IMG/VR virus record: IMGVR_UViG_2778261502_000010
Location: 1-12,128 of that record
Strand: one strand, 5' to 3'
Length of the DNA: 12,128 nt
Source: a virus
Lineage: Duplodnaviria; Heunggongvirae; Uroviricota; Caudoviricetes
Position numbers and translations under genes: made by a program. Below are positions 1-11,960 of the stretch, piece by piece. The notes under the pieces are model-generated. The model saw only the letters and a program-made list of their open reading frames with translations, searched no databases and was not told where the DNA came from. The first letter of the stretch is position 1; the number at the start of each line of letters is the position of its first letter.

Positions 1-1164
1 TTACGCCTTCTTTATATCCTCCATAATTCCAGAGTGGGACATATTTGGGACATTATCACCAAAAATGTCGTCTATTTTCCTCGCATGCTCTGTCAAATGA
101 TTAGGCGCAAGGTGAGCATACCTACGAACCATTTCTATGGACTCCCATCCGCCCATTTCCTGAAGCACTGATAATGGGACGCCTGACTGAATCAGCCAGC
201 TTGCCCAGGTGTGTCTGAGGTCATGGAAACGGAAATCTTCAATTCCTGCACGACGACAAGCTGATAGCCATGATGTCTTGCTGTCGATGCGCATCTTCCT
301 GACCGCAGGCGTTGATGTTCCATCTGCTCGCTTAGCCGCCTTGGTATGTACAAACACCCATTTGTGATGCTTGCCTATTTGATCACGCAACACTTTACAG
401 GCGGTATCGTTCAGCGCCACACCAATGGCGCGGTTTGATTTGCTCTCTTCTGGATTCACCCAGGCAACTCGTCGCTGCATGTCGATTTGTTGCCATTCCA
501 GATTTATGATGTTCGACTTTCTCAGACCAGTTGCCAGCGCAAACTTGACGACAGATTTCAGTGGTTCGGGGCACTCATCAATAAGGCGTTTTGCTTCCTC
601 CTTTTCCAGCCATCTGACTCGCTTGTTTCTGACCGCTGGTATCTTGATGACAGGCGCTTTTTCCAGCCACTTCCAGTCGCGTTCTGCAGCACGGAGAATG
701 GCCTTTATCATGGCAAGATGCTTTGCCTTTGTCTGAGTTGATACTGGCTTTGGTTCATAAACAGGCAGTTCTTTACCTTTCCTGATGGCGGCCTGAACTT
801 TCTGTTTCCATATTTCTTTCGTCTTTCTGTTATGCATTCTGCTTACAGCAGAGTAAATCTTTGCCTCCGAGATATCTTTAAGCCTTATACCCTCAAAATG
901 TTCAAGCCAGAACTCAATCCGGCTTTTATCTGAATCGAGAGATTTTTTATCAGCTTTTTCCTCAAGCCATCTTAGGCAGGCCTCTTCAAAAGTGACATCA
1001 GGTAAATCCCCTAGCTTTTCTACTCGCTAGAGTTCTGCTTTTCGCTTGTCGTGCAACTCCTGAGCTTGCCGCTTGTCCTTTGTGCCAAGAGATTCCTTAA
1101 TTCGTTTCCCGCCCGGGAGCGAATACGAGGCATACCATATTTCATTTCTGCGGAAGAGTGACAT
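1..1164 (-). pseudogene. int: P22-type tyrosine integrase, full 388-codon frame present but interrupted by an in-frame amber (TAG) at codon 46
   Basis: Minus-strand translation from the ATG at 1164-1162 gives [45 protein letters not shown], then a stop (plus-strand cta at 1027-1029), then [24 protein letters not shown]... continuing in the same frame to the stop at 1-3. It is colinear with P22 Int as recalled from memory, including the C-terminal [11 protein letters not shown]...MVRRYAHL catalytic region. The stop sits where P22 has Trp (TGG to TAG). Confidence 0.8.
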
Positions 1165-1391
1165 TTTCTTTCCTCTGTTATGCCATCACCCGCGCTCACC
1201 TGGACAGTATGCAGCGGAGACTGAAGCGCCGCAATGCAGGCTTGCCGTGTTGTGAGGTAAGGAGATTTTGGCTTGGTTGGATCTTTACGTGTTGCCTGTA
1301 GGCGGCCTGTTCGTATCCAGTTGGTGGCGGTTGGTCTGGATATCTTAAGAAACTGACAGGCCTCATCGAGTGTGAGGCTGTATGATTCCAT
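1020..1391 (-). CDS. xis: Excisionase, P22 Xis-like (123 aa); 3' end overlaps the int start out of frame
   Basis: Translation begins [56 protein letters not shown], matching P22 Xis from memory. The ATG at 1391 is the likely start; the ORF-track extension to 1454 is upstream leader read in frame. Confidence 0.8.
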
Positions 1392-1534
1392 GGTTAGCTT
1401 TGGTGGTGTGTGTGAGTCGTAGTCCTGAACGAAAACACCCCACGATTGGCTCATTTGCAGCTAATCCGGATTCGCACTTCCGGCCAATGCTTCGTTTCGT
1501 ATCACACACCCCAAAGCCTTCTGCTTTGAATGCT

Positions 1535-1565
1535 GCCCTTCTTCAGGGCTTAATTTTTAAGAGCA
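1535..1565 (-). promoter_or_regulatory. nutL: nutL-like N-utilisation site (boxA TGCTCTTAA, boxB GCCCTGAAGAAGGGC) in the PL leader
   Basis: The minus strand reads GATGCTCTTAAAAATTAAGCCCTGAAGAAGGGCAGCATTCAAAGCAGAAGGCTTTGGGGTGTGTGATACGAAACGAAGCATTGG, which matches the lambda nutL/N-leader sequence from memory. The boxB inverted repeat is visible directly. Confidence 0.75.
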
Positions 1566-1610
1566 TCACCTTCAATGGTGGTCAGTGCGTCCTGCTGATG
1601 GCTTAAAATT

Positions 1611-1677
1611 ACAAGAAAGATTGTATGTTGTAAACAAGAAATATTGTGAAAGGGGCATGAAAAACAAACTCCATTGT
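1611..1677. promoter_or_regulatory. Left operator OL1-OL3 (three 14-bp 434-type sites) with the leftward PL promoter
   Basis: Three 14-mers of the form ACAA-N6-TTGT: ACAAGAAAGATTGT (1611-1624), ACAAGAAATATTGT (1634-1647), ACAAACTCCATTGT (1664-1677). Same family as the OR sites found upstream of cI. Confidence 0.8.
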
Positions 1678-1727
1678 TTTTAAACGGAAAATAGTTTGTT
1701 TTTTGGTTATCGAGATTGAGGTGGGGA

Positions 1728-3084
<1,357 letters not shown>

Positions 3085-3092
3085 GACATTCC

Positions 3093-3124
3093 CGCTCTTA
3101 CACATCCCAGCCCTGAAAAAGGGC
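3093..3124 (+). promoter_or_regulatory. nutR: nutR (boxA CGCTCTTA, boxB GCCCTGAAAAAGGGC)
   Basis: CGCTCTTACACATCCCAGCCCTGAAAAAGGGCATCAAA read directly; matches lambda nutR from memory. Confidence 0.8.
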
Positions 3125-3150
3125 ATCAAATTAAACCACACCTATGGTGT

Positions 3151-3170
3151 ATGCATTTATTTGCATACAT
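3151..3170 (+). terminator. tR1-region hairpin between cro and cII
   Basis: GTATGCA-TTTATT-TGCATAC inverted repeat (7-bp stem) at the position of the lambda tR1 region. Confidence 0.45.
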
Positions 3171-3189
3171 TCAATCAATTGTTATCTAA

Positions 3190-3230
3190 GGAAATACTTA
3201 CATATGGTTCGTGCAAACAAACGCAACGAG
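3190..3230 (-). promoter_or_regulatory. PRE establishment promoter with CII site TTGC-N6-TTGC (minus strand TTGCGTTTGTTTGC at 3213-3226)
   Basis: The CII recognition repeat is read directly on the minus strand overlapping the cII 5' end, as in lambda. Confidence 0.65.
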
Positions 3231-3497
3231 GCTCTACGAATCGAGAGTGCGTTGCTTAACAAAATCGCAATGCTTGGAACTGAGAAGACAGCGGAAGCTG
3301 TGGGCGTTGATAAGTCGCAGATCAGCAGGTGGAAGAGGGACTGGATTCCAAAGTTCTCAATGCTGCTTGCTGTTCTTGAATGGGGTGTCGTTGACGACGA
3401 CATGGCTCGATTGGCACGACAAGTTGCTTCGATTCTCACCAATAAAAAACGCCCGGCGGCAACCGAGCGTTCTGAACAAATCCAGATGGAATTCTGA
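3204..3497 (+). CDS. cII: CII transcriptional activator (97 aa), lambda type
   Basis: MVRANKRNEALRIESALLNKIAMLGTEKTAEAVGVDKSQISRWKRDWIPKFSMLLAVLEWGVVDDDMARLARQVASILTNKKRPAATERSEQIQMEF is near-identical to lambda CII from memory. Confidence 0.93.
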   Translation: MVRANKRNEALRIESALLNKIAMLGTEKTAEAVGVDKSQISRWKRDWIPKFSMLLAVLEWGVVDDDMARLARQVASILTNKKRPAATERSEQIQMEF

Positions 3498-3519
3498 GGT
3501 CATTACTGGATCTATCAAC
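3443..3519 (-). ncRNA. oop: oop antisense RNA (about 77 nt), overlapping the cII 3' end
   Basis: The minus strand reads GTTGATAGATCCAGTAATGACCTCAGAATTCCATCTGGATTTGTTCAGAACGCTCGGTTGCCGCCGGGCGTTTTTTATT, matching lambda oop RNA from memory, with a terminal GC hairpin and U-tract. Confidence 0.6.
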
Positions 3520-3529
3520 AGGAGTCATT

Positions 3530-4429
3530 ATGACAAATACAGCAAAAATACTCAACTTCGGCAGAGGTAACTTTGCCGGACAGGAGCGTAATGTGGCAGA
3601 TCTCGATGATGGTTACGCCAGACTATCAAATATGCTGCTTGAGGCTTATTCAGGCGCAGATCTGACCAAGCGACAGTTTAAAGTGCTGCTTGCCATTCTG
3701 CGTAAAACCTATGGGTGGAATAAACCAATGGACAGAATCACCGATTCTCAACTTAGCGAGATTACAAAGTTACCTGTCAAACGGTGCAATGAAGCCAAGT
3801 TAGAACTCGTCAGAATGAATATTATCAAGCAGCAAGGCGGCATGTTTGGACCAAACAAAAACATCTCAGAATGGTGCATCCCTCAAAACGAGGGAAAATC
3901 CCCTAAAACGAGGGATAAAACATCCCTCAAATTGGGGGATTGCTATCCCTCAAAACAGGGGGACACAAAAGACACTATTACAAAAGAAAAAAGAAAAGAT
4001 TATTCGTCAGAGAATTCTGGCGAATCCTCTGACCAGCCAGAAAACGACCTTTCTGTGGTGAAACCGGATGCTGCAATTCAGAGCGGCAGCAAGTGGGGGA
4101 CAGCAGAAGACCTGACCGCCGCAGAGTGGATGTTTGACATGGTGAAGACCATCGCGCCATCAGCCAGAAAACCGAATTTTGCTGGGTGGGCTAACGATAT
4201 CCGCCTGATGCGTGAACGTGACGGACGTAACCACCGCGATATGTGTGTGCTTTTCCGCTGGGCCTGCCAGGACAACTTCTGGTCCGGTAACGTGCTGAGT
4301 CCGGCCAAACTCCGCGACAAGTGGACCCAGCTCGAAATCAACCGTAACAAGCAACAGGCTGGCGTGACAGCCGGAAAACCAAAACTCGACCTGACAAACA
4401 CTGACTGGATTTACGGGGTGGATCTATGA
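3530..4429 (+). CDS. O: Replication initiator O (299 aa), lambda type
   Basis: [66 protein letters not shown]... is near-identical to lambda O from memory; the ori iterons lie inside it. Confidence 0.93.
3878..3964. repeat. ori-lambda: four ~19-bp iterons (ATCCCTCAAAACGAGGGA-like) followed by an A/T-rich unwinding region to about 4010
   Basis: Four tandem imperfect repeats: tcatccctcaaaacgaggga / atcccctaaaacgagggata / catccctcaaattgggggat / tatccctcaaaacaggggga, then acaaaagacactattacaaaagaaaaaagaaaag. Confidence 0.85.
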
Positions 4430-4593
4430 AAAACATCGCCGCACAGATGGTTAACTTTGACCGTGAGCAGATGCGTCGGATCGCCAACAACATGCCGGAA
4501 CAGTACGACGAAAAGCCACAGGTATTTGATACCAGACCTCTCCGCGCCGCCATGATTGTCTTTCTCCTGATGCAGGAGGCCAATAATGCTTAG
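4426..4593 (+). pseudogene. P: Truncated replication protein P: first ~33 codons lambda P-like, then unrelated sequence and a stop
   Basis: The ATG overlaps the O stop (ATGA at 4426-4429). [33 protein letters not shown] matches the lambda P N-terminus from memory, then [22 protein letters not shown] and TAG at 4591-4593. Lambda P is ~233 aa and there is no room for it before rusA. Confidence 0.75.
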
Positions 4594-4803
4594 CCCATCT
4601 CAATCCCTTCAATACCTGAAAGGAAGCATAGAGCGGGCTTCAATGTGCACAGAGTGGATTCTATCTAGGTTTAGCGCATACAGAAGATTGCCGGTAAAGG
4701 GCATGCCAAGCAAGTCGATGCTGCATATGCAAAAGAATGCGCGCTGGAAGGTATGGCGAGAACGCAGGTTATCTGGCTGAAAGAGGGGGTAATTAAGGCG
4801 TGA
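4586..4803 (+). pseudogene. nin-region remnant: NinF-like N-terminus running through frameshifts into a YbcO (DUF1364)-like C-terminus
   Basis: The ATG at 4586 opens [14 protein letters not shown]... (lambda NinF starts [10 protein letters not shown] from memory). In another frame 4675-4803 reads [42 protein letters not shown], resembling the YbcO C-terminus. No continuous frame exists; the reference sequences are recalled from memory. Confidence 0.45.
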
Positions 4804-5162
4804 ATACTTACCACATCACACTACCCTGGCCGCCGAGCAATAACCGCTACTACCGCCATAATCGAGGGCGCACGCACGTCAGCGCAGAGGGGCAGGCATA
4901 CCGCGATAACGTCGCCCGAATCATTAAAAACGCAATGCTGGATATCGGCCTGGCTATGCCTGTGAAAATCCGCATTGAGTGCCACATGCCGGATCGCCGT
5001 CGCCGTGACCTGGATAATCTGCAAAAAGCCGCTTTTGACGCACTCACTAAAGCAGGTTTCTGGCTGGATGATGCTCAGGTCGTTGATTACCGCGTTGTGA
5101 AGATGCCTGTTACCAAAGGTGGGAGGCTGGAACTGACCATCACCGAAATGGGGAATGAATGA
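4800..5162 (+). CDS. rusA: RusA Holliday-junction resolvase (GTG start)
   Basis: [120 protein letters not shown] matches E. coli RusA from memory. Confidence 0.93.
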
Positions 5163-5299
5163 TGTTTGAGTTTAATATGGCAGAACTTCTTCGCCACCGC
5201 TGGGGGCGTCTGCGCTTATATCGTTCCCCCGGTTCTGTTTTGACCGATTACCGAATACTGAAGAATTACGCCAAAACCCTGACAGGAGCAGGAGTATGA
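5159..5299 (+). CDS. ylcG: YlcG-like small protein (46 aa), start overlapping the rusA stop
   Basis: [46 protein letters not shown] translated directly; resembles DLP12 YlcG from memory. Below the length cutoff of the ORF track. Confidence 0.65.
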
Positions 5300-5384
5300 A
5301 GTCAGAGATAACAATCAACTAATACTGTTTTGTTGATTTTTGCTTGTAATTGGCGTTCTGGCCTGATTTTTGTGGAGTAAGTTG

Positions 5385-5768
5385 ATGCGTGATATTCAGA
5401 TGGTTCTTGAGCGTTGGGGAGCGTGGGCGGCTAATAATCATGAAGATGTGACCTGGTCGTCCATTGCCGCCGGTTTTAAGGGATTAATTACTTCAAAAGT
5501 AAAATCTCGCCCGCAATGTTGTGACGATGACGCGATGATTATTTGCGGGTGCATGGCCCGTCTGAAAAAGAACAACAGCGATTTGCACGATTTATTAGTA
5601 GATTATTATGTAGTCGGTATGACATTCATGTCACTGGCAGGTAAGCATTGCTGCTCTGATGGTTATATCGGGAAAAGGTTACAGAAGGCTGAGGGCATAA
5701 TTGAAGGGATGTTAATGGCATTAGATATCCGGTTAGAGATGGATATCGTTGTTAATAACTCTAATTAA
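5385..5768 (+). CDS. Q: Q-family late-gene antiterminator (QuuD-like, 127 aa)
   Basis: [62 protein letters not shown]... with Cys-rich zinc-binding-like motifs, in the Q position downstream of rusA/ylcG. The ATG at 5385 is preferred over the TTG at 5370. Confidence 0.85.
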
Positions 5769-5780
5769 TATGCCAGTTGT

Positions 5781-5819
5781 TTACTAAAAATTATTAAAAA
5801 TGGGGCGTTGCAACGCCCC
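5781..5819 (-). terminator. Rho-independent terminator for the convergent porin transcript
   Basis: Perfect palindrome GGGGCGTTGCAACGCCCC (5802-5819) followed on the minus strand by ATTTTTAATAATTTTT. Confidence 0.6.
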
Positions 5820-5906
5820 CAAAAATAAAGGGTAATATATAACAGAAGGTTTATATAGTTAGAAGCAAGGTTGTGCTCCTAAAGGAAGTGGCTTGAGGGA
5901 GCCACT

Positions 5907-5948
5907 TATATGTTGGGGAGGCAAAGCCTCCCGCAACATATCTTTTTC
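5907..5948 (+). terminator. Rho-independent terminator downstream of Q (candidate end of a short PR'-type transcript)
   Basis: ATATGTTGGGGAGGC-AAA-GCCTCCCGCAACATAT (about a 15-bp stem with one bulge) followed immediately by TCTTTTTCG on the plus strand. Confidence 0.55.
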
Positions 5949-5957
5949 GTAATCAGA

Positions 5958-7055
5958 TTAGAACTGGTAAACCAGACCTACAGCAACGATGTCATCAGTG
6001 CTTACACCGAGTGCTTTAGTGAAGTCATTTTTGTCAAGCAGGTTGATTTTGTAATCAACGAAAGTAGACATATTTTTGTTGAAGTAATAGGTTGCACCTA
6101 CATCAACATATTTGACTAAGTCCTGATCGCCCCATACTCCAAGATCCTTACCTTTAGATTGCAGGTAAGCAACGGACGGACGCAGACCGAAATCGAACTG
6201 ATATTGTGCAACAGCTTCGAAGTTTTGAGCTTTATTAGCAACGAAGTGATCAGCAAATACAGTCATATTCTGGGTTTCAGAATAGGTAGTGGCCAGGTAA
6301 ATGTTGTTAGCGTCATATTTCAGACCTGCGGCCCAAACTTCTGCATTTTTACCGGAAGCAAATACTTCAGGAAGAACTTTCCCTGCATTAACTTGAGTGT
6401 CGGTACGATCAGATTTCGCATAAGTTGCACCGATACCGAATCCTTCGTATTCATAGGTAGCAGAGAAACCGAAGCCATCACCGTTACCTTCGGTGTAGTT
6501 ATCGAAATCGCTACGATCGTTTTTGCCTTGGTACTGAGCAGCAAAGTTCAGACCATCAACCAGACCAAAGAAGTCGTTGTTACGATAGGTTGCAACACCA
6601 GTGGTGCGACCAGTCATGAACACATCTGTTTGGGTCCAGGTATCGCCACCGAATTCTGGCAGAACGTCAGTCCACGCACCGATGTCGTATGCTACACCGT
6701 AGTTACGGCCGTAATCGATGGAGCCGTAGTCACCGAATTTCAGGCCAGCGAAGGCAAGACGGGTTTTATCTTTGGAGGAACCTTGAGATTCAGCGCGGTT
6801 GCCTTTGAATTCATATTCCCACTGACCGAAACCAGTCAGTTGATCGTTGATTTGGGTTTCACCTTTGAAGCCAAGACGGGCATAAGTAGTATCACCATCA
6901 TCTGCATCATTAGAGGAGAAGTAGTGCTTAGCATTAACTTTCCCGTACAGATCCAGCTTGTTACTGTCTTTATTATAAATTTCAGCTGCCTGAGCAGACA
7001 TCGCCATCAGTACTGATGCAGCTACAGCAGAAATTGCCACTGTTAATTTTTTCAT
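5958..7055 (-). CDS. nmpC: General diffusion porin, NmpC/Lc (OmpC/OmpF/PhoE family), intact 365 aa with signal peptide
   Basis: [40 protein letters not shown]... and a C-terminal ...VAVGLVYQF beta-barrel signature with a terminal Phe. It sits convergent to Q and upstream of the holin, as for lc in phage PA-2 and nmpC in DLP12. Confidence 0.93.
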
Positions 7056-7483
7056 CGTGAGCCCTTTTTTTTGAACTATTATTAAAAAATGATGTCACTG
7101 CGCGATAAATATTCATCTAATCAATATGATTATTTCAAGATGTAAGTTTTGGTTTCTCGTTTGATTTGTGAAGTAGATCTCTATTTTTATCTGAACTTTT
7201 TTCTATCGAATCCTATTCATGGCTCTTGGCTGAATAAAAATAAATCTATTAGCCAATTTATATTAACGGTTGTTATTTATAAGTGCTCTATGATTTGAAG
7301 GTTCAATTTAAATCGGCTAAAAATAACACTGGGAATTATTTGTTGGTTATTTGTTGAGATTTGCTTATGTATTTGTAGTGGTGTTTTCAATACTCGGTAG
7401 CATTCTCGCAAATATCATTTAGTGGTTTACGTACGTAAAAAATTGGTTATGCTGTTAAGAGTGGTTACTTCGTCACACAGCTT

Positions 7484-7516
7484 AAACCCGCCGTCGAGTG
7501 GGTTTTTCCATTTTTT
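7484..7516 (+). terminator. Rho-independent terminator about 110 bp upstream of the holin gene (tR'-like)
   Basis: AAACCCGC-CGTCGA-GTGGGTTT stem-loop followed by TTTTTCCATTTTTT. Confidence 0.6.
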
Positions 7517-7628
7517 GAGTCTCGATATTAGCTGATAACCCAATACCTGAGTTATTCACTGACTCCGAGTCTGTTACGTTTCGTAGTATTCCCTCAATTT
7601 ACACCCGCTTTGTCTGCGAGGTGGGGTT

Positions 7629-7844
7629 ATGAAATCCATGGATAAGTTAACAACGGGTGTCGCCTATGGCACCTCAGCAGGTAGTGCCGGGTACTGGTTT
7701 TTACAGCTGCTAGATAAAGTCACGCCCTCACAGTGGGCGGCAATTGGAGTGCTGGGTAGCCTGGTATTTGGCCTGCTGACGTACCTGACAAACCTTTATT
7801 TCAAGATTAAAGAAGATAAGCGCAAGGCTGCGAGAGGTGAATAA
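7629..7844 (+). CDS. S: Class II holin/pinholin, phage-21 S-like (71 aa), dual-start motif MKSM
   Basis: [71 protein letters not shown]: two transmembrane segments and a charged C-terminus; matches S21/EssD from memory. Confidence 0.9.
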
Positions 7845-8341
7845 TGCCTCCATCATTACGAAAAGCCGTTGCTGCTGCTATTGGTGGCGGAGCAATTGCT
7901 ATAGCATCAGTGTTAATTACTGGCCCAAGTGGTAACGATGGTCTGGAAGGTGTCAGCTACATACCATACAAAGATATTGTTGGTGTATGGACTGTATGTC
8001 ACGGGCATACAGGAAAAGACATCATGCTCGGTAAAACGTATACCAAAGCAGAATGCAAAGCCCTCCTGAATAAAGACCTTGCCACGGTCGCCAGACAAAT
8101 TAACCCGTACATCAAAGTCGATATACCGGAAACAACGCGCGGCGCTCTTTACTCGTTCGTCTACAACGTGGGTGCTGGCAATTTCAGAACATCGACGCTT
8201 CTTCGCAAAATAAACCAGGGTGATATCAAAGGCGCATGTGATCAGCTACGGCGCTGGACATACGCTGGCGGTAATCAATGGAAAGGACTGATGACTCGCC
8301 GTGAGATTGAGCGTGAAGTCTGTTTGTGGGGGAAACAATGA
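7844..8341 (+). CDS. R: SAR endolysin (phage-21 R / RrrD-type lysozyme, 165 aa)
   Basis: The start overlaps the holin stop (TAATG). The N-terminus [27 protein letters not shown] is a Gly/Ala-rich signal-anchor-release segment, followed by a lysozyme domain matching R21/RrrD from memory. Confidence 0.93.
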
Positions 8342-8796
8342 GCAGAGTAACCGCGATTATCTCCGCTCTGGTTATCTGCATCATCGTCTGCCTGTCATGG
8401 GCTGTTAATCATTACCGTGATAACGCAATCGCCTACAAAGAGCAGCGCGATAACAAGGCCAGTGAACTGGAGAAGGCGAACGCCACCATCGCTGACATGC
8501 GGAAGCGTCAACGTGATGTAGCAGAACTCGACGCAAGATACACAAAGGAGCTTGCTGATGCTAACGCGACTATCGAAAGTCTCCGTGCTGATGTTTCTGC
8601 TGGGCGTAAGCGCCTGCAAGTCGCCGCCACCTGTGCAAAGTCAACGACCGGAGCCAGCGGCATGGGCGATGGAGAAAGCCCAGGACTTACAGCAGATGCT
8701 GAACTCAATTATTACCGTCTCCGAAGTGGAATCGACAAGATAACCGCGCAGGTTAACTACCTGCAGGAATACATCAGGACGCAATGCCTGAAATAA
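8338..8796 (+). CDS. Rz: Rz i-spanin (inner-membrane spanin subunit)
   Basis: The ATG overlaps the endolysin stop (ATGA at 8338-8341). It has an N-terminal transmembrane segment [23 protein letters not shown], a coiled-coil-like charged region, and Rz1 embedded in the +1 frame. Confidence 0.85.
8552..8743 (+). CDS. Rz1: Rz1 o-spanin lipoprotein embedded in the +1 frame of Rz
   Basis: ...[26 protein letters not shown]...: a lipobox-like LGVSAC followed by a proline-rich segment, entirely within Rz. The exact start (Met1 or Met3) is uncertain. Confidence 0.7.
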
Positions 8797-8827
8797 TTTT
8801 TTTGCAAATCACAAAGTCCATTTAATG

Positions 8828-8852
8828 AGCCTCGCGATGCGGGGCTTTTTTT
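8828..8852 (+). terminator. Rho-independent terminator after the lysis cassette
   Basis: AGCCTCGC-GAT-GCGGGGCT (8-bp stem with one G-U pair) followed by a run of 7 T. Confidence 0.7.
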
Positions 8853-9001
8853 ACATCTGAATTTCACAGCGCATCTCACGCGCATATTACATCACCCGAG
8901 CCTTTCAGAAAGTTGAGCCTGAGAACTGCCGTATATGGTGGCGACCATCTCGGGGCGGCTTTTCTGTGAGACAGGCTCACTTTCTAAAAGGTAAAGACGC
9001 T

Positions 9002-9490
9002 ATGAACCAATTAGAAGAAAAGCTTCAAAGAATGATTTCCTTATACAAGGAAGATAACTGCCAAAAAGTTCCTGAAAACATCGCAGAGTTAATGGAATTG
9101 GCAAGTGAATTTTCTGGCATGCTTAAGTCGTCAGGTGTTCGGTCAGCGTTCTTTGTTGAAATGCTGATGCACGGCGGACTTATGGCAACAATGAGACGTG
9201 TAATGGAAGACCAGAGAAAAGAACCTCCTCAGGTATACGTTTTGTCATCGAAGAAAACTGGGCTAACCAAAATTGGGTATTCATCCAACATTCCACAACG
9301 CATCAAATCGCTTGGCAACTCTGGACCAGACTGCTTGAAGCTTGAGTGCCTGATCCCTGGTGGAAGAGAAACTGAAAACATGCTTCATCGCAAATTTGCC
9401 GCAAAGAGAAAGCACGGTGAATGGTTCGCCCTGTCCAAGGATGACATTGAGGGATTGAAATCTGTAGCGATTACTTCTGATGGCTATTAA
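9002..9490 (+). CDS. Hypothetical protein with a C-terminal T5orf172 / GIY-YIG-like domain (162 aa from the ATG at 9002; alternative GTG at 8966)
   Basis: The C-terminal half PQVYVLSSKKTGLTKIGYSSNIPQRIKSLGNS...LKLECLIPGGRETENMLHRKFAAKRKHGEWFALSKDDIEGLKSV fits the T5orf172 pattern (VYVL...KIG...R...L......E..LH..F...R..GEWF). The N-terminal ~80 aa are unassigned. AAGG lies about 10 nt upstream of the ATG at 9002. Confidence 0.6.
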   Translation: MNQLEEKLQRMISLYKEDNCQKVPENIAELMELASEFSGMLKSSGVRSAFFVEMLMHGGLMATMRRVMEDQRKEPPQVYVLSSKKTGLTKIGYSSNIPQRIKSLGNSGPDCLKLECLIPGGRETENMLHRKFAAKRKHGEWFALSKDDIEGLKSVAITSDGY

Positions 9491-10168
9491 TGCTTGTTTA
9501 GAGCAATTTTCATAACAACTCTTCATTACAAAGCCCATCTACTGGTGGGCTTGATAATGAAACCGTGATTTACATCCCCACAATCCGGGTATGTAAAAGA
9601 TAGTTCAGGCGAGAACGGATTTAACTAAATCTGTGCGCCACCAGTTAACGGCAGTACCACGAAACAACCCAAGCCAGTAAGTGGGGAAATAACACCGGCA
9701 GCCACTGAAAGATGAACCTCCTGCCTTATGGCAAAAAAGATTCTTTGTGGTGGCGGACTGATGGAAAGACATCCTAATTTCAGCCAAACATTGAAGGAGT
9801 TGTTATGTCAGCAGAAGGTTTCAATAACCCATCAAAATTCCGGGATGAGTGGGATAGCAGCGTAAAGAGTAAGTGATGCCATCACAAAAGCCATTCCCTA
9901 CAGAGTGGCTTTGATAATGGCTTATACCCTACACGGGATAACTTAACTGATATCCCTTTTAAAGGATAAAGGTATTCAAGCCTGACACATCATGCGCTGT
10001 ATCGTCGCCGTATTCCCGTATTAACAGAGACCGTAGCCCGACGGGGAACTCCTTCTGCGCGAGTGTGCGGGAATAATCAAAAACGATGCACACCGGGGTT
10101 ACCGGGTACACATATTTCATCATGCCAGCGAGTCCGGTTCTGGCACGGAAGAAACCGGACGTTATGAT

Positions 10169-10579
10169 TTAGTGCGGAAATATTTGTGTAGTGTTCTGAA
10201 TGTTCTCAGTAAAGAGTAATGAATTATCAAAGGTATAGTAATACCTTTTGTTTTCGTGGATATTTGTAATCCATCTGAAAACCCCTGCTGTAGCAAGATT
10301 TTTCCTGTATTCGTAAAATGATAACTCTCCTGATTTGAATCCTTTTAATGTGGCTTCTATAAGGCATTTATTTTTTGAAAATCTTACATTTACAACCTTA
10401 CCCTGTCCTTTTATTAAAACCGTATTATCGTTTTCAAGAACAAGATGAATATTCTCTGTGGCTAAATAGTAAATGTAATGTGAGACATTGTGACGTTTTA
10501 GTTCAGAATAAAACCAGTGATAGTTTAAATTATTTCGCACTTTATCGAATATTTGTTTAAAAATGGCAACCTGAGCCAT
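10169..10579 (-). CDS. ybcV: YbcV-like protein (DUF1398 family), 136 aa from the MAQVAIF start
   Basis: [58 protein letters not shown]...[38 protein letters not shown] resembles DLP12 YbcV from memory. GAAGG lies upstream of the second ATG; the first ATG is at 10594. Confidence 0.7.
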
Positions 10580-10636
10580 TGTAGTACCTTCCATGTGATA
10601 TGAGGGTACCTAGTCTGCACGATTATCTAAATTGCT

Positions 10637-10870
10637 TCAATCTGGTCTGACCTGCTTTCTGAGCAATTCAGTAATGTCACTCTTTTCTTTGTTTGCTTCA
10701 GGCGAAACTCTTTTTTCTGAGCACAGTCTTCGGCGGCAGGCTTCAATGACCCAGGCTGAGAAGTTCCCAGACCCTTTTTGATCAAGAGCGATGTTAATTT
10801 GTTCAATCATTTGGTTAGGAAAGCGGATGTTGCGGGTTGTTGTTCTGCGGGTTCTGTTCTTCGTTGACAT
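10637..10870 (-). CDS. ylcI: YlcI-like small basic protein (DUF3950-like, possible ribbon-helix-helix DNA binder), 77 aa
   Basis: MSTKNRTRRTTTRNIRFPNQMIEQINIALDQKGSGNFSAWVIEACRRRL...: basic N-terminus followed by a beta-helix-helix-like pattern; it lies directly upstream of and co-oriented with the ybcV-like gene. Confidence 0.6.
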   Translation of the reverse strand: MSTKNRTRRTTTRNIRFPNQMIEQINIALDQKGSGNFSAWVIEACRRRLCSEKRVSPEANKEKSDITELLRKQVRPD

Positions 10871-11069
10871 GAGGTTGTCCCGTATTCAGTGTCGCTGATT
10901 TGTATTGTCTGAAGTTGTTTTTACGTTAAGTTGATGCAGATCAATTAATATGATACCTGCGTCATAATTGATTATTTGACGTGGTTTGATGGCGTAGATG
11001 CACGTTGTGACATGCAGATGATAATTATTATCATTTTGCGGGTCCTTTCCGGCGATCCGACAGGTTACG

Positions 11070-11257
11070 GGGCGGCGACCTCGCGGGTTTTTGCTATTTA
11101 TGAAAATTTTCCGGTTTAAGGTGTTTCCGTTCTTCTTCGTCGTAACTTAATGTTTTTATTTAAAATACCCCTGAAAAGAAAGGAAACGACAGGTGCTGAA
11201 AACGAGCTTTTGGGCCTTTGTCGTTTCCTTTCTCTGTTTTTGGCCGTGGAATGAACA
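11070..11257. other. cos: cos site: cosN 12-nt cohesive-end sequence GGGCGGCGACCT (11070-11081) and the cosB terminase-binding region up to Nu1
   Basis: ...GGTCCTTTCCGGCGATCCGACAGGTTACG|GGGCGGCGACCTCGCGGGTTTTTGCTATTTATGAAAATTTTCCGGTTTAAGG... matches the junction of the lambda right and left ends from memory. Confidence 0.88.
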
Positions 11258-11803
11258 ATGGAAGTCAACAAAAAGCAGCTGGCTGACATTTTCGGTGCGA
11301 GTATCCGTACCATTCAGAACTGGCAGGAACAGGGAATGCCCGTTCTGCGAGGCGGTGGCAAGGGTAATGAGGTGCTTTATGACTCTGCCGCCGTCATAAA
11401 ATGGTATGCCGAAAGGGATGCTGAAATTGAGAACGAAAAGCTGCGCCGGGAGGTTGAAGAACTGCGGCAGGCCAGCGAGGCAGATCTCAAGCCAGGGACT
11501 ATTGAGTACGAACGCCATCGACTTACGCGTGCGCAGGCCGACGCACAGGAACTGAAGAATGCCAGAGACTCCGCTGAAGTGGTGGAAACCGCATTCTGTA
11601 CTTTCGTGTTGTCGCGGATCGCAGGTGAAATTGCCAGTATTCTCGACGGGATCCCCCTGTCGGTGCAGCGGCGTTTTCCGGAACTGGAAAACCGACATGT
11701 TGATTTCCTGAAACGGGATATCATCAAAGCCATGAACAAAGCAGCCGCGCTGGATGAACTGATACCGGGGTTGCTGAGTGAATATATCGAACAGTCAGGT
11801 TAA
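11258..11803 (+). CDS. nu1: Terminase small subunit Nu1 (181 aa), lambda type
   Basis: [71 protein letters not shown]... is near-identical to lambda Nu1 from memory. Confidence 0.93.
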
Positions 11804-11960
11804 CAGGCTGCGGCATTTTGTCCGCGCCGGGCTTCGCTCACTGTTCAGGCCGGAGCCACAGACCGCCGTTGAATGGGCGGATGCCAATTACTATCTCCCG
11901 AAAGAATCCGCATACCAGGAAGGGCGCTGGGAAACACTGCCCTTTCACCATCACCGTTAA
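11778..11960 (+). pseudogene. A: Terminase large subunit A, N-terminal ~55 codons only, truncated by a deletion
   Basis: [56 protein letters not shown] matches the lambda gpA N-terminus from memory, then HHHR and TAA at 11958-11960. The ~640-aa remainder is absent. Confidence 0.85.

Follow-up and report, generated by a model that had tools for sequence, protein, structure and literature searches.

Described systems closest to the locus

A nonsense codon in int abolishes the integration and excision of phages λ and P22 unless the host has a suppressor, as is known from laboratory int amber mutants. Those mutations were obtained by laboratory selection, and the phages were otherwise viable, whereas the int amber codon considered in the present study is a natural allele of a decaying prophage. 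Mutations in recombinase genes have been reviewed as a route to ‘grounded’ prophages (PMC6379469). The cryptic lambdoid prophage Qin of E. coli likewise has an inactive integrase gene, intQ, and shows no detectable excision; prophage DLP12 of strain K-12, in which intD is intact, excises in fewer than 1 per 100,000 cells (PMC3105296). The intQ gene is regarded here as a different integrase family member with a different site and a different lesion from the intD gene described below. In DLP12, the P22-type integrase gene intD is located at argU, according to Lindsey et al. 1989, as cited in PMC6379469.

The DNA analysed in the present study, hereafter the window, is a stretch of 12,128 nucleotides. 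Judging by its gene content and layout, the element that it carries is a remnant of a DLP12-family lambdoid prophage at tRNA-Arg(UCU) in E. coli. Over positions 1-11454, the window is 100% identical to contig NLUV01000033.1 (L023) of assembly GCA_002233275.1. In this contig, a tRNA-Arg(tct) gene starts 16 nt beyond the int stop codon, just outside the window, and is followed by fimZ. The same layout of fimZ, tRNA-Arg and int was found in E. coli K-12, EM18-18-42 and HKUOPY1. The integrase gene is therefore placed next to tRNA-Arg(UCU), the attachment site, as is typical of IntD; this placement is based on gene layout. The tRNA-Arg(UCU) gene at the insertion site is presumably argU.

K-12 DLP12 occupies the same chromosomal site and has the same late region as the window (rusA, ylcG, quuD, porin, essD, rrrD, Rz and nohD), with nohD likewise fused to tail-fibre remnants. 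The Int sequences align without gaps and are identical at 385 of 387 positions, one of the two differences being the replacement of Trp46 by a stop codon. In K-12, however, intD is intact, with TGG at codon 46, and xis is cut by a deletion at the window-equivalent position 1259, whereas in the window int contains the amber codon and the xis ORF is complete. The 434-type immunity and the deletion end-points of the window also differ from those of K-12 DLP12.

The closest relative with the same amber codon is the prophage in the complete genome of E. coli EM18-18-42 (NZ_CP063473.1, locus L001; chicken meat, Laos). It carries the identical allele, the int-xis region being the same at 1,396 of 1,396 nt, TAG included, and PGAP has annotated its intD as an integrase pseudogene with an ‘internal stop’ (locus IQS24_RS05515). 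The EM18-18-42 prophage keeps the exo-to-N region, P, the nin genes, a terminase gene and a frameshifted portal gene, all of which have been lost from the window.

The integrase frame and its overlap with xis

The int frame is read on the minus strand from the ATG at 1164-1162 to the final stop at 3-1, with 387 sense positions, and its sole internal stop is codon 46 (Table 1). It can be aligned with Int of the P22-like phage ST160 without gaps, 277 of the 387 residues being identical. This colinear similarity over the full length places the frame among P22/DLP12-type IntD proteins. A Pfam search revealed the PF00589 domain, which covers residues 184-355 (E = 5e-47; 160 bits, with the cutoff at 27). 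The catalytic residues R215, K242, H314, R317, W340 and Y349, which were assigned from HP1 and XerC-like alignments and from knowledge of the family, are all present 3′ of the stop codon. Both attributes of a tyrosine recombinase of the phage integrase family, PF00589 and the R-K-H-R-(H/W)-Y residues, are thus found in the part of the frame that follows TAG, while the frame is interrupted between its start codon and the catalytic Tyr.

Codon 46 is TGG in K-12, HKUOPY1, PhiR26_1, a Stx1c phage, BIS08P22 (Salmonella), an Enterobacter phage and ST160. Trp46 is invariant in these seven homologues, isolated phages among them, at protein identities of 72-99.7%. The change from TGG to TAG is G-to-A on the coding strand, which corresponds to C-to-T on the plus strand at base 1028. 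The initial annotation had described int as colinear with P22 Int over 387 codons, with TAG at codon 46 where P22 has Trp, and had attributed the amber codon to one G-to-A change in an otherwise intact frame, suggesting alignment with intact homologues as a check. The comparisons bear this out in full, and the positions that it had given for the xis-int overlap, the stop codon and the ATG at 837 are all correct.

Table 1. Positions of the features discussed; lesions of intD found in other E. coli assemblies are given in window-equivalent coordinates.
Feature	Position	Strand	Remarks
intD pseudogene	1..1164	minus	P22-type tyrosine integrase, 387 codons, one amber codon; gapless alignments and Pfam
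Residual ORF, 278 aa	1..837	minus	from the first in-frame ATG (codon 110); contains all catalytic residues
Amber codon TAG	1027..1029	minus	int codon 46; ancestral codon TGG (Trp); mutated base 1028
N-terminal stub, 45 codons	1030..1164	minus	would remain translated; good GAGGA Shine-Dalgarno sequence upstream
xis ORF, 123 aa	1020..1391	minus	P22-type excisionase, HTH_17; G122S; native ribosome-binding site lost
Deletion junction 1	1393..1396		GTTA microhomology (4 bp); xis start joined to the N leader
434-type OL operators and pL, presumed nutL boxB (1535-1549), 5′ part of the presumed N leader	1397..1677	minus	now read straight into xis-int
cI repressor, 434-type, intact	2129..2761	minus	LexA/S24 family; ORF; phage 434 match; ‘LexA family protein’ in EM18-18-42
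Deletion junction 2	4513..4524		2.4 kb lost (L001 13731-16096): most of P, ren, ninB, dam, ninE, ninX
Deletion junction 3	11946..11947		DNA just after nohD joined to the tail-fibre remnant
intD one-base deletions	948 and 1074
intD IS insertions	about 1005-1014		two different contexts
intD different nonsense mutation	1004		codon 54
intD start-codon loss	1162		ATG to ATA
Homology to the window ends	881, 975, 1108, 1126		975 may be a contig end and not a deletion

Heterobivalent integrases such as λ Int have an N-terminal arm-type DNA-binding domain made up of a three-stranded sheet and a helix. The part of int in front of the amber codon was modelled with AF2 in the single-sequence mode. Strands at residues 2-6, 9-16 and 20-25 and a helix at 31-44 were predicted for residues 1-45, with a pLDDT of 88.9 for the best model and about 60 for the other four. 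A Foldseek comparison of this 45-aa model with the PDB gave no match below E = 0.4, and a sequence search of int residues 1-114 against the PDB returned nothing relevant. The Pfam match of the N-terminus to DUF6538 was weak (E = 0.005, below its cutoff). It may be speculated that the 45-residue stub is still able to bind arm-type sites and to interfere with related integrases.

The first ATG, GTG or TTG that follows the int stop codon in frame is the ATG at 837, as had been pointed out in the initial annotation together with the N-terminally truncated product that would result. This product should begin at residue 110, within the expected core-binding region, and by analogy with the Int proteins of λ and P22 it is reasonable to suppose that it would be devoid of the arm-binding domain. 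A Shine-Dalgarno sequence was found neither at ATG 837 nor at other downstream in-frame int starts, and the 278-aa ORF is probably not expressed. An in-frame restart of int was rejected, as no ATG, GTG or TTG precedes 837 and no Shine-Dalgarno sequence accompanies it.

The xis ORF lies upstream of int on the minus strand, with its ATG at 1391-1389 and its stop TAG at 1022-1020, and overlaps int over 145 nt (1020-1164). It encodes a small helix-turn-helix protein that belongs to the P22 Xis-type excisionases by this position, by identity with ST160 Xis at 91 of 116 residues and by the Pfam domain PF12728 (HTH_17, E = 1e-8); the score against TIGR01764 ‘excise’ (E = 3e-6, 27.7 bits) is just under the cutoff of 28.8. 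Base 1028 belongs to both frames, as the second position of the int amber codon and the first position of xis codon 122, two codons ahead of the xis stop, in agreement with the initial annotation, according to which the mutated base is shared with the 3′ end of xis. The codon reads AGC (Ser) in the window and GGC (Gly) in relatives, whose Xis proteins end in NSGE or NCGE. The Gly122Ser replacement is probably neutral, because it is located in a C-terminal tail that has no counterpart in P22-type Xis.

Preservation of xis, which had also been claimed, applies to the ORF, but not to the codon just mentioned or to the signals in front of the gene. In relatives, the xis ATG is preceded by CAGAGGTAACC, while the window has CAAAGCTAACC instead. 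Since deletion junction 1 sits 2 nt upstream of the ATG, the Shine-Dalgarno sequence of xis has been lost: the GAGGT ribosome-binding site was removed, and the native translation-initiation region is absent from the window. An engineered origin of the CCATGG at the xis start was considered and rejected, as all relatives have this sequence natively and the 4-bp microhomology of the junction is typical of spontaneous deletion. In L001 (5326-5391) and in L004 (4326-4391), PGAP has annotated the first 22 codons of xis only, as ‘helix-turn-helix domain-containing protein, incomplete’. In both, the ORF with homology to P22 Xis is open over all 123 codons, and the short call seems to be an annotation artefact due to the overlap of xis with int.

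Immunity region, deletions and probable order of decay

The immunity region is of the 434 type, as revealed by cI, cro and the operators. Five ACAA-N6-TTGT operators were found, against 0.35 expected by chance for the whole window, and three of them are located at 1611-1677. A scan of 800-2200 for promoters and terminators gave results at chance level, the boxB hairpin being the only signal found. The names nutL and N leader are assigned by reference to the λ sequence. Immediately downstream of cI and overlapping its stop, in the position of rexAB of λ, there is a minus-strand ORF of 134-158 aa (1728-2204) with a hydrophobic N-terminal segment and no Pfam match.

The deletions were called against EM18-18-42. 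At junction 1, 5.2 kb have been lost (L001 5397-10603), with DUF4222, TraR, exo, bet, gam, kil, cIII and N. Between nohD and the tail-fibre remnant, where the contig ends, there is no gene for the terminase large subunit, the portal or other morphogenesis proteins. Both the contig and the window end in this remnant, which puts attR outside the view. N, P, and the head and tail genes, which an intact (inducible) lambdoid prophage would have, are absent from the window and present in EM18-18-42. The initial annotation had regarded the prophage as apparently locked in place by a single change. The conversion of Trp46 to an amber codon stands, but the element is not otherwise functional, having also lost the 5.2 kb, the 2.4 kb of junction 2 and the genes behind nohD.

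Junction 1 brings nutL and pL to a distance of about 150-250 nt upstream of xis-int, and the fusion creates an extended xis ORF of 144 aa from the ATG at 1454. A look-up of this extended protein, which is specific to junction 1, returned only contig NLUV01000033.1, in 2 samples, and the junction was not found in 5,426 complete E. coli genomes.

The genes N, cIII, kil, gam, bet, exo, O and P have been retained in two amber carriers, EM18-18-42 and L015. Because these carriers keep genes that the window lacks, the amber codon appears to predate the deletions of the window. The amber mutation first and the deletions later is the simplest order, as suggested by parsimony. The antiterminator gene quuD is frameshifted in EM18-18-42 (L001 16967-17349) and open in the window (5370-5768). 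After the amber codon arose, the decay of these two carriers has thus taken different courses.

Distribution of the allele and possible explanations

A 61-mer centred on the amber site is held by 1,639 complete E. coli genomes and matches exactly in one of them, EM18-18-42. The 39 other genomes listed all differ at a single base, which was confirmed as base 1028 in K-12 and HKUOPY1 only, and a total of 1,574 genomes fall within the band of 95-99% identity. Carriers are rare, with one among 5,426 complete genomes. The 61-mer is also held by 20 phage records, never as an exact match; 14 of them differ at one base, and no isolated phage with the amber codon was found among the phage records examined. 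An exact-pattern scan of the GTDB representatives, one genome per species, with an amber 36-mer gave no match, a result that speaks for species representatives only.

The mutation creates a unique Xis protein, so an exact look-up of Xis-G122S was used as a proxy for the amber allele. It returned 17 contigs, which come from assemblies at NCBI, metagenomes at ENA and read sets in Logan. Ten loci from these three sources were retrieved (L001 and L015-L023), and TAG was read at codon 46 in all ten, base by base. The 1,391-nt xis-int block shows 0-1 other differences among them. As almost nothing else has changed in the gene, the amber allele is young. The stop codon is an inherited mutation and not an error or a chance event.

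Gene callers have predicted the 278-aa residual ORF in 216 blocks of the public collection, where it follows a variety of lesions. Ten places were returned of these 216 blocks; the codon-46 amber was found in none of the ten, which instead carry ten different lesions (L005-L014, window-equivalent positions 881-1162; Table 1). These belong to other E. coli assemblies, fall in codons 1-95 of intD and all leave the same 278-aa ORF. The 5′ part of intD is thus a recurrent target of inactivation in E. coli. Nor is the amber mutation exceptional: the same allele is already a RefSeq pseudogene, and ten other loci have ten different 5′ lesions.

The amber codon occurs on two int haplotypes, 767A and 767G, and all four combinations of the alleles at sites 767 and 1028 exist. 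In L021, the amber codon is found together with 767G, a variant otherwise seen in the non-carrier HKUOPY1. In L016, a metagenome co-assembly, the amber allele adjoins a chromosomal flank beyond tRNA-Arg with 104 differences in about 9 kb (~1%). Simple clonal descent, with neither recombination nor recurrent mutation nor chimeric assembly, does not explain the two haplotypes and the diverged flank; any of these three could explain them. The immunity regions of the carriers differ as well. L015, L023 and EM18-18-42 are of the 434 type, while L021 has a different repressor of 251 aa with YdaS/YdaT.

Taken as a whole, it is very probable that the locus is a loss-of-function intD pseudogene of a DLP12-family prophage, in which Int-dependent excision has been abolished and the amber codon came before the deletions. 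A spontaneous G-to-A transition turned the invariant Trp46 codon into an amber codon, and the same base change produced the probably neutral Gly122Ser in the C-terminal part of Xis. Ribosomes that initiate at the normal start would stop after 45 residues, and the core-binding and catalytic parts of the protein would not be made. Without functional Int, the prophage would lose Int-dependent excision and re-integration and become ‘grounded’. When the allele arose, the early and replication genes of the prophage would still have been in place, along with some or all of the packaging and head genes. The allele was inherited, and three large blocks have been lost by illegitimate deletion in the lineage of the window, probably at a later time.

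One dead integrase is found beneath prophages with different immunity and replication modules, on two int haplotypes and possibly in two chromosomal backgrounds. It is nevertheless very unlikely that the int-amber allele is more than decay and represents a long-lived anchor, by which a grounded DLP12-type element is kept as a fixed platform. Such a platform would be rebuilt when incoming lambdoid phages recombine with it, or homologous recombination would transfer it from strain to strain.

UAG codons are read through in E. coli at about 1e-3 to 1e-2, depending on the context. The UAG of int, which is followed by C, might be read through at a low level by a near-cognate tRNA or in a suppressor host, and a trickle of full-length Int with a substituted position 46 would then leave the prophage throttled and not locked. 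The fully intact downstream frame with all catalytic residues, and the youth of the allele, with 0-1 further differences among carriers, are in line with such a conditional integrase. It is highly improbable, however. Trp46 is invariant in all homologues checked and the substituted product may be impaired, the TAG is not conserved outside one allele and nothing suggests a programmed event. Even the intact IntD of K-12 supports fewer than 1e-5 excisions, 1% of which would be negligible, and xis of the window has no ribosome-binding site. No tRNA gene was found in the window, which rules out a suppressor tRNA borne by this part of the prophage. An amber suppressor or a cross-reacting integrase may be present elsewhere in the host genome, beyond what the window can tell.

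Selected domestication would mean that the amber codon was favoured because it anchors useful prophage genes (the 434-type immunity, the porin and the lysis cassette) and prevents lethal induction, the anchored element then serving incoming lambdoid phages as a landing pad to recombine with. The idea has been proposed in general terms (PMC6379469). The persistence of the allele in many samples, in prophages with different immunity and replication modules, would fit it, as would the two int haplotypes on possibly two chromosomal backgrounds. The repeated inactivation of intD would fit it too, but recurrent loss is equally predicted by neutral decay of an unused gene. Moreover, carriers are rare among complete genomes (1 in 5,426), and the case with the diverged flank comes from a metagenome co-assembly that may be chimeric. 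Selection of this kind is thus highly improbable as the explanation of the allele. A sequencing or assembly error, with G as the true base and int intact, might be suspected from a single base in a draft assembly shared by only one of the 1,639 complete genomes in which this site occurs, but is almost certainly wrong and was rejected, since the same base was read in ten independently assembled loci from different assemblies, metagenomes and read sets, a finished chromosome included.

The int amber codon of the window is, then, an ordinary nonsense pseudogene in a cryptic DLP12-family prophage, already annotated in RefSeq. For annotation, this means that intD should be treated here as a pseudogene and the element as a non-excisable, non-inducible DLP12-family remnant, and little follows beyond correct annotation. 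The locus also offers a small, clean example of the order of prophage decay, in which the integrase would have been knocked out first and the large deletions would have come after. Independent hits at the 5′ end of intD are frequent and comprise point mutations, frameshifts, IS insertions and deletions, which fits the published picture of the ‘grounded’ prophage.
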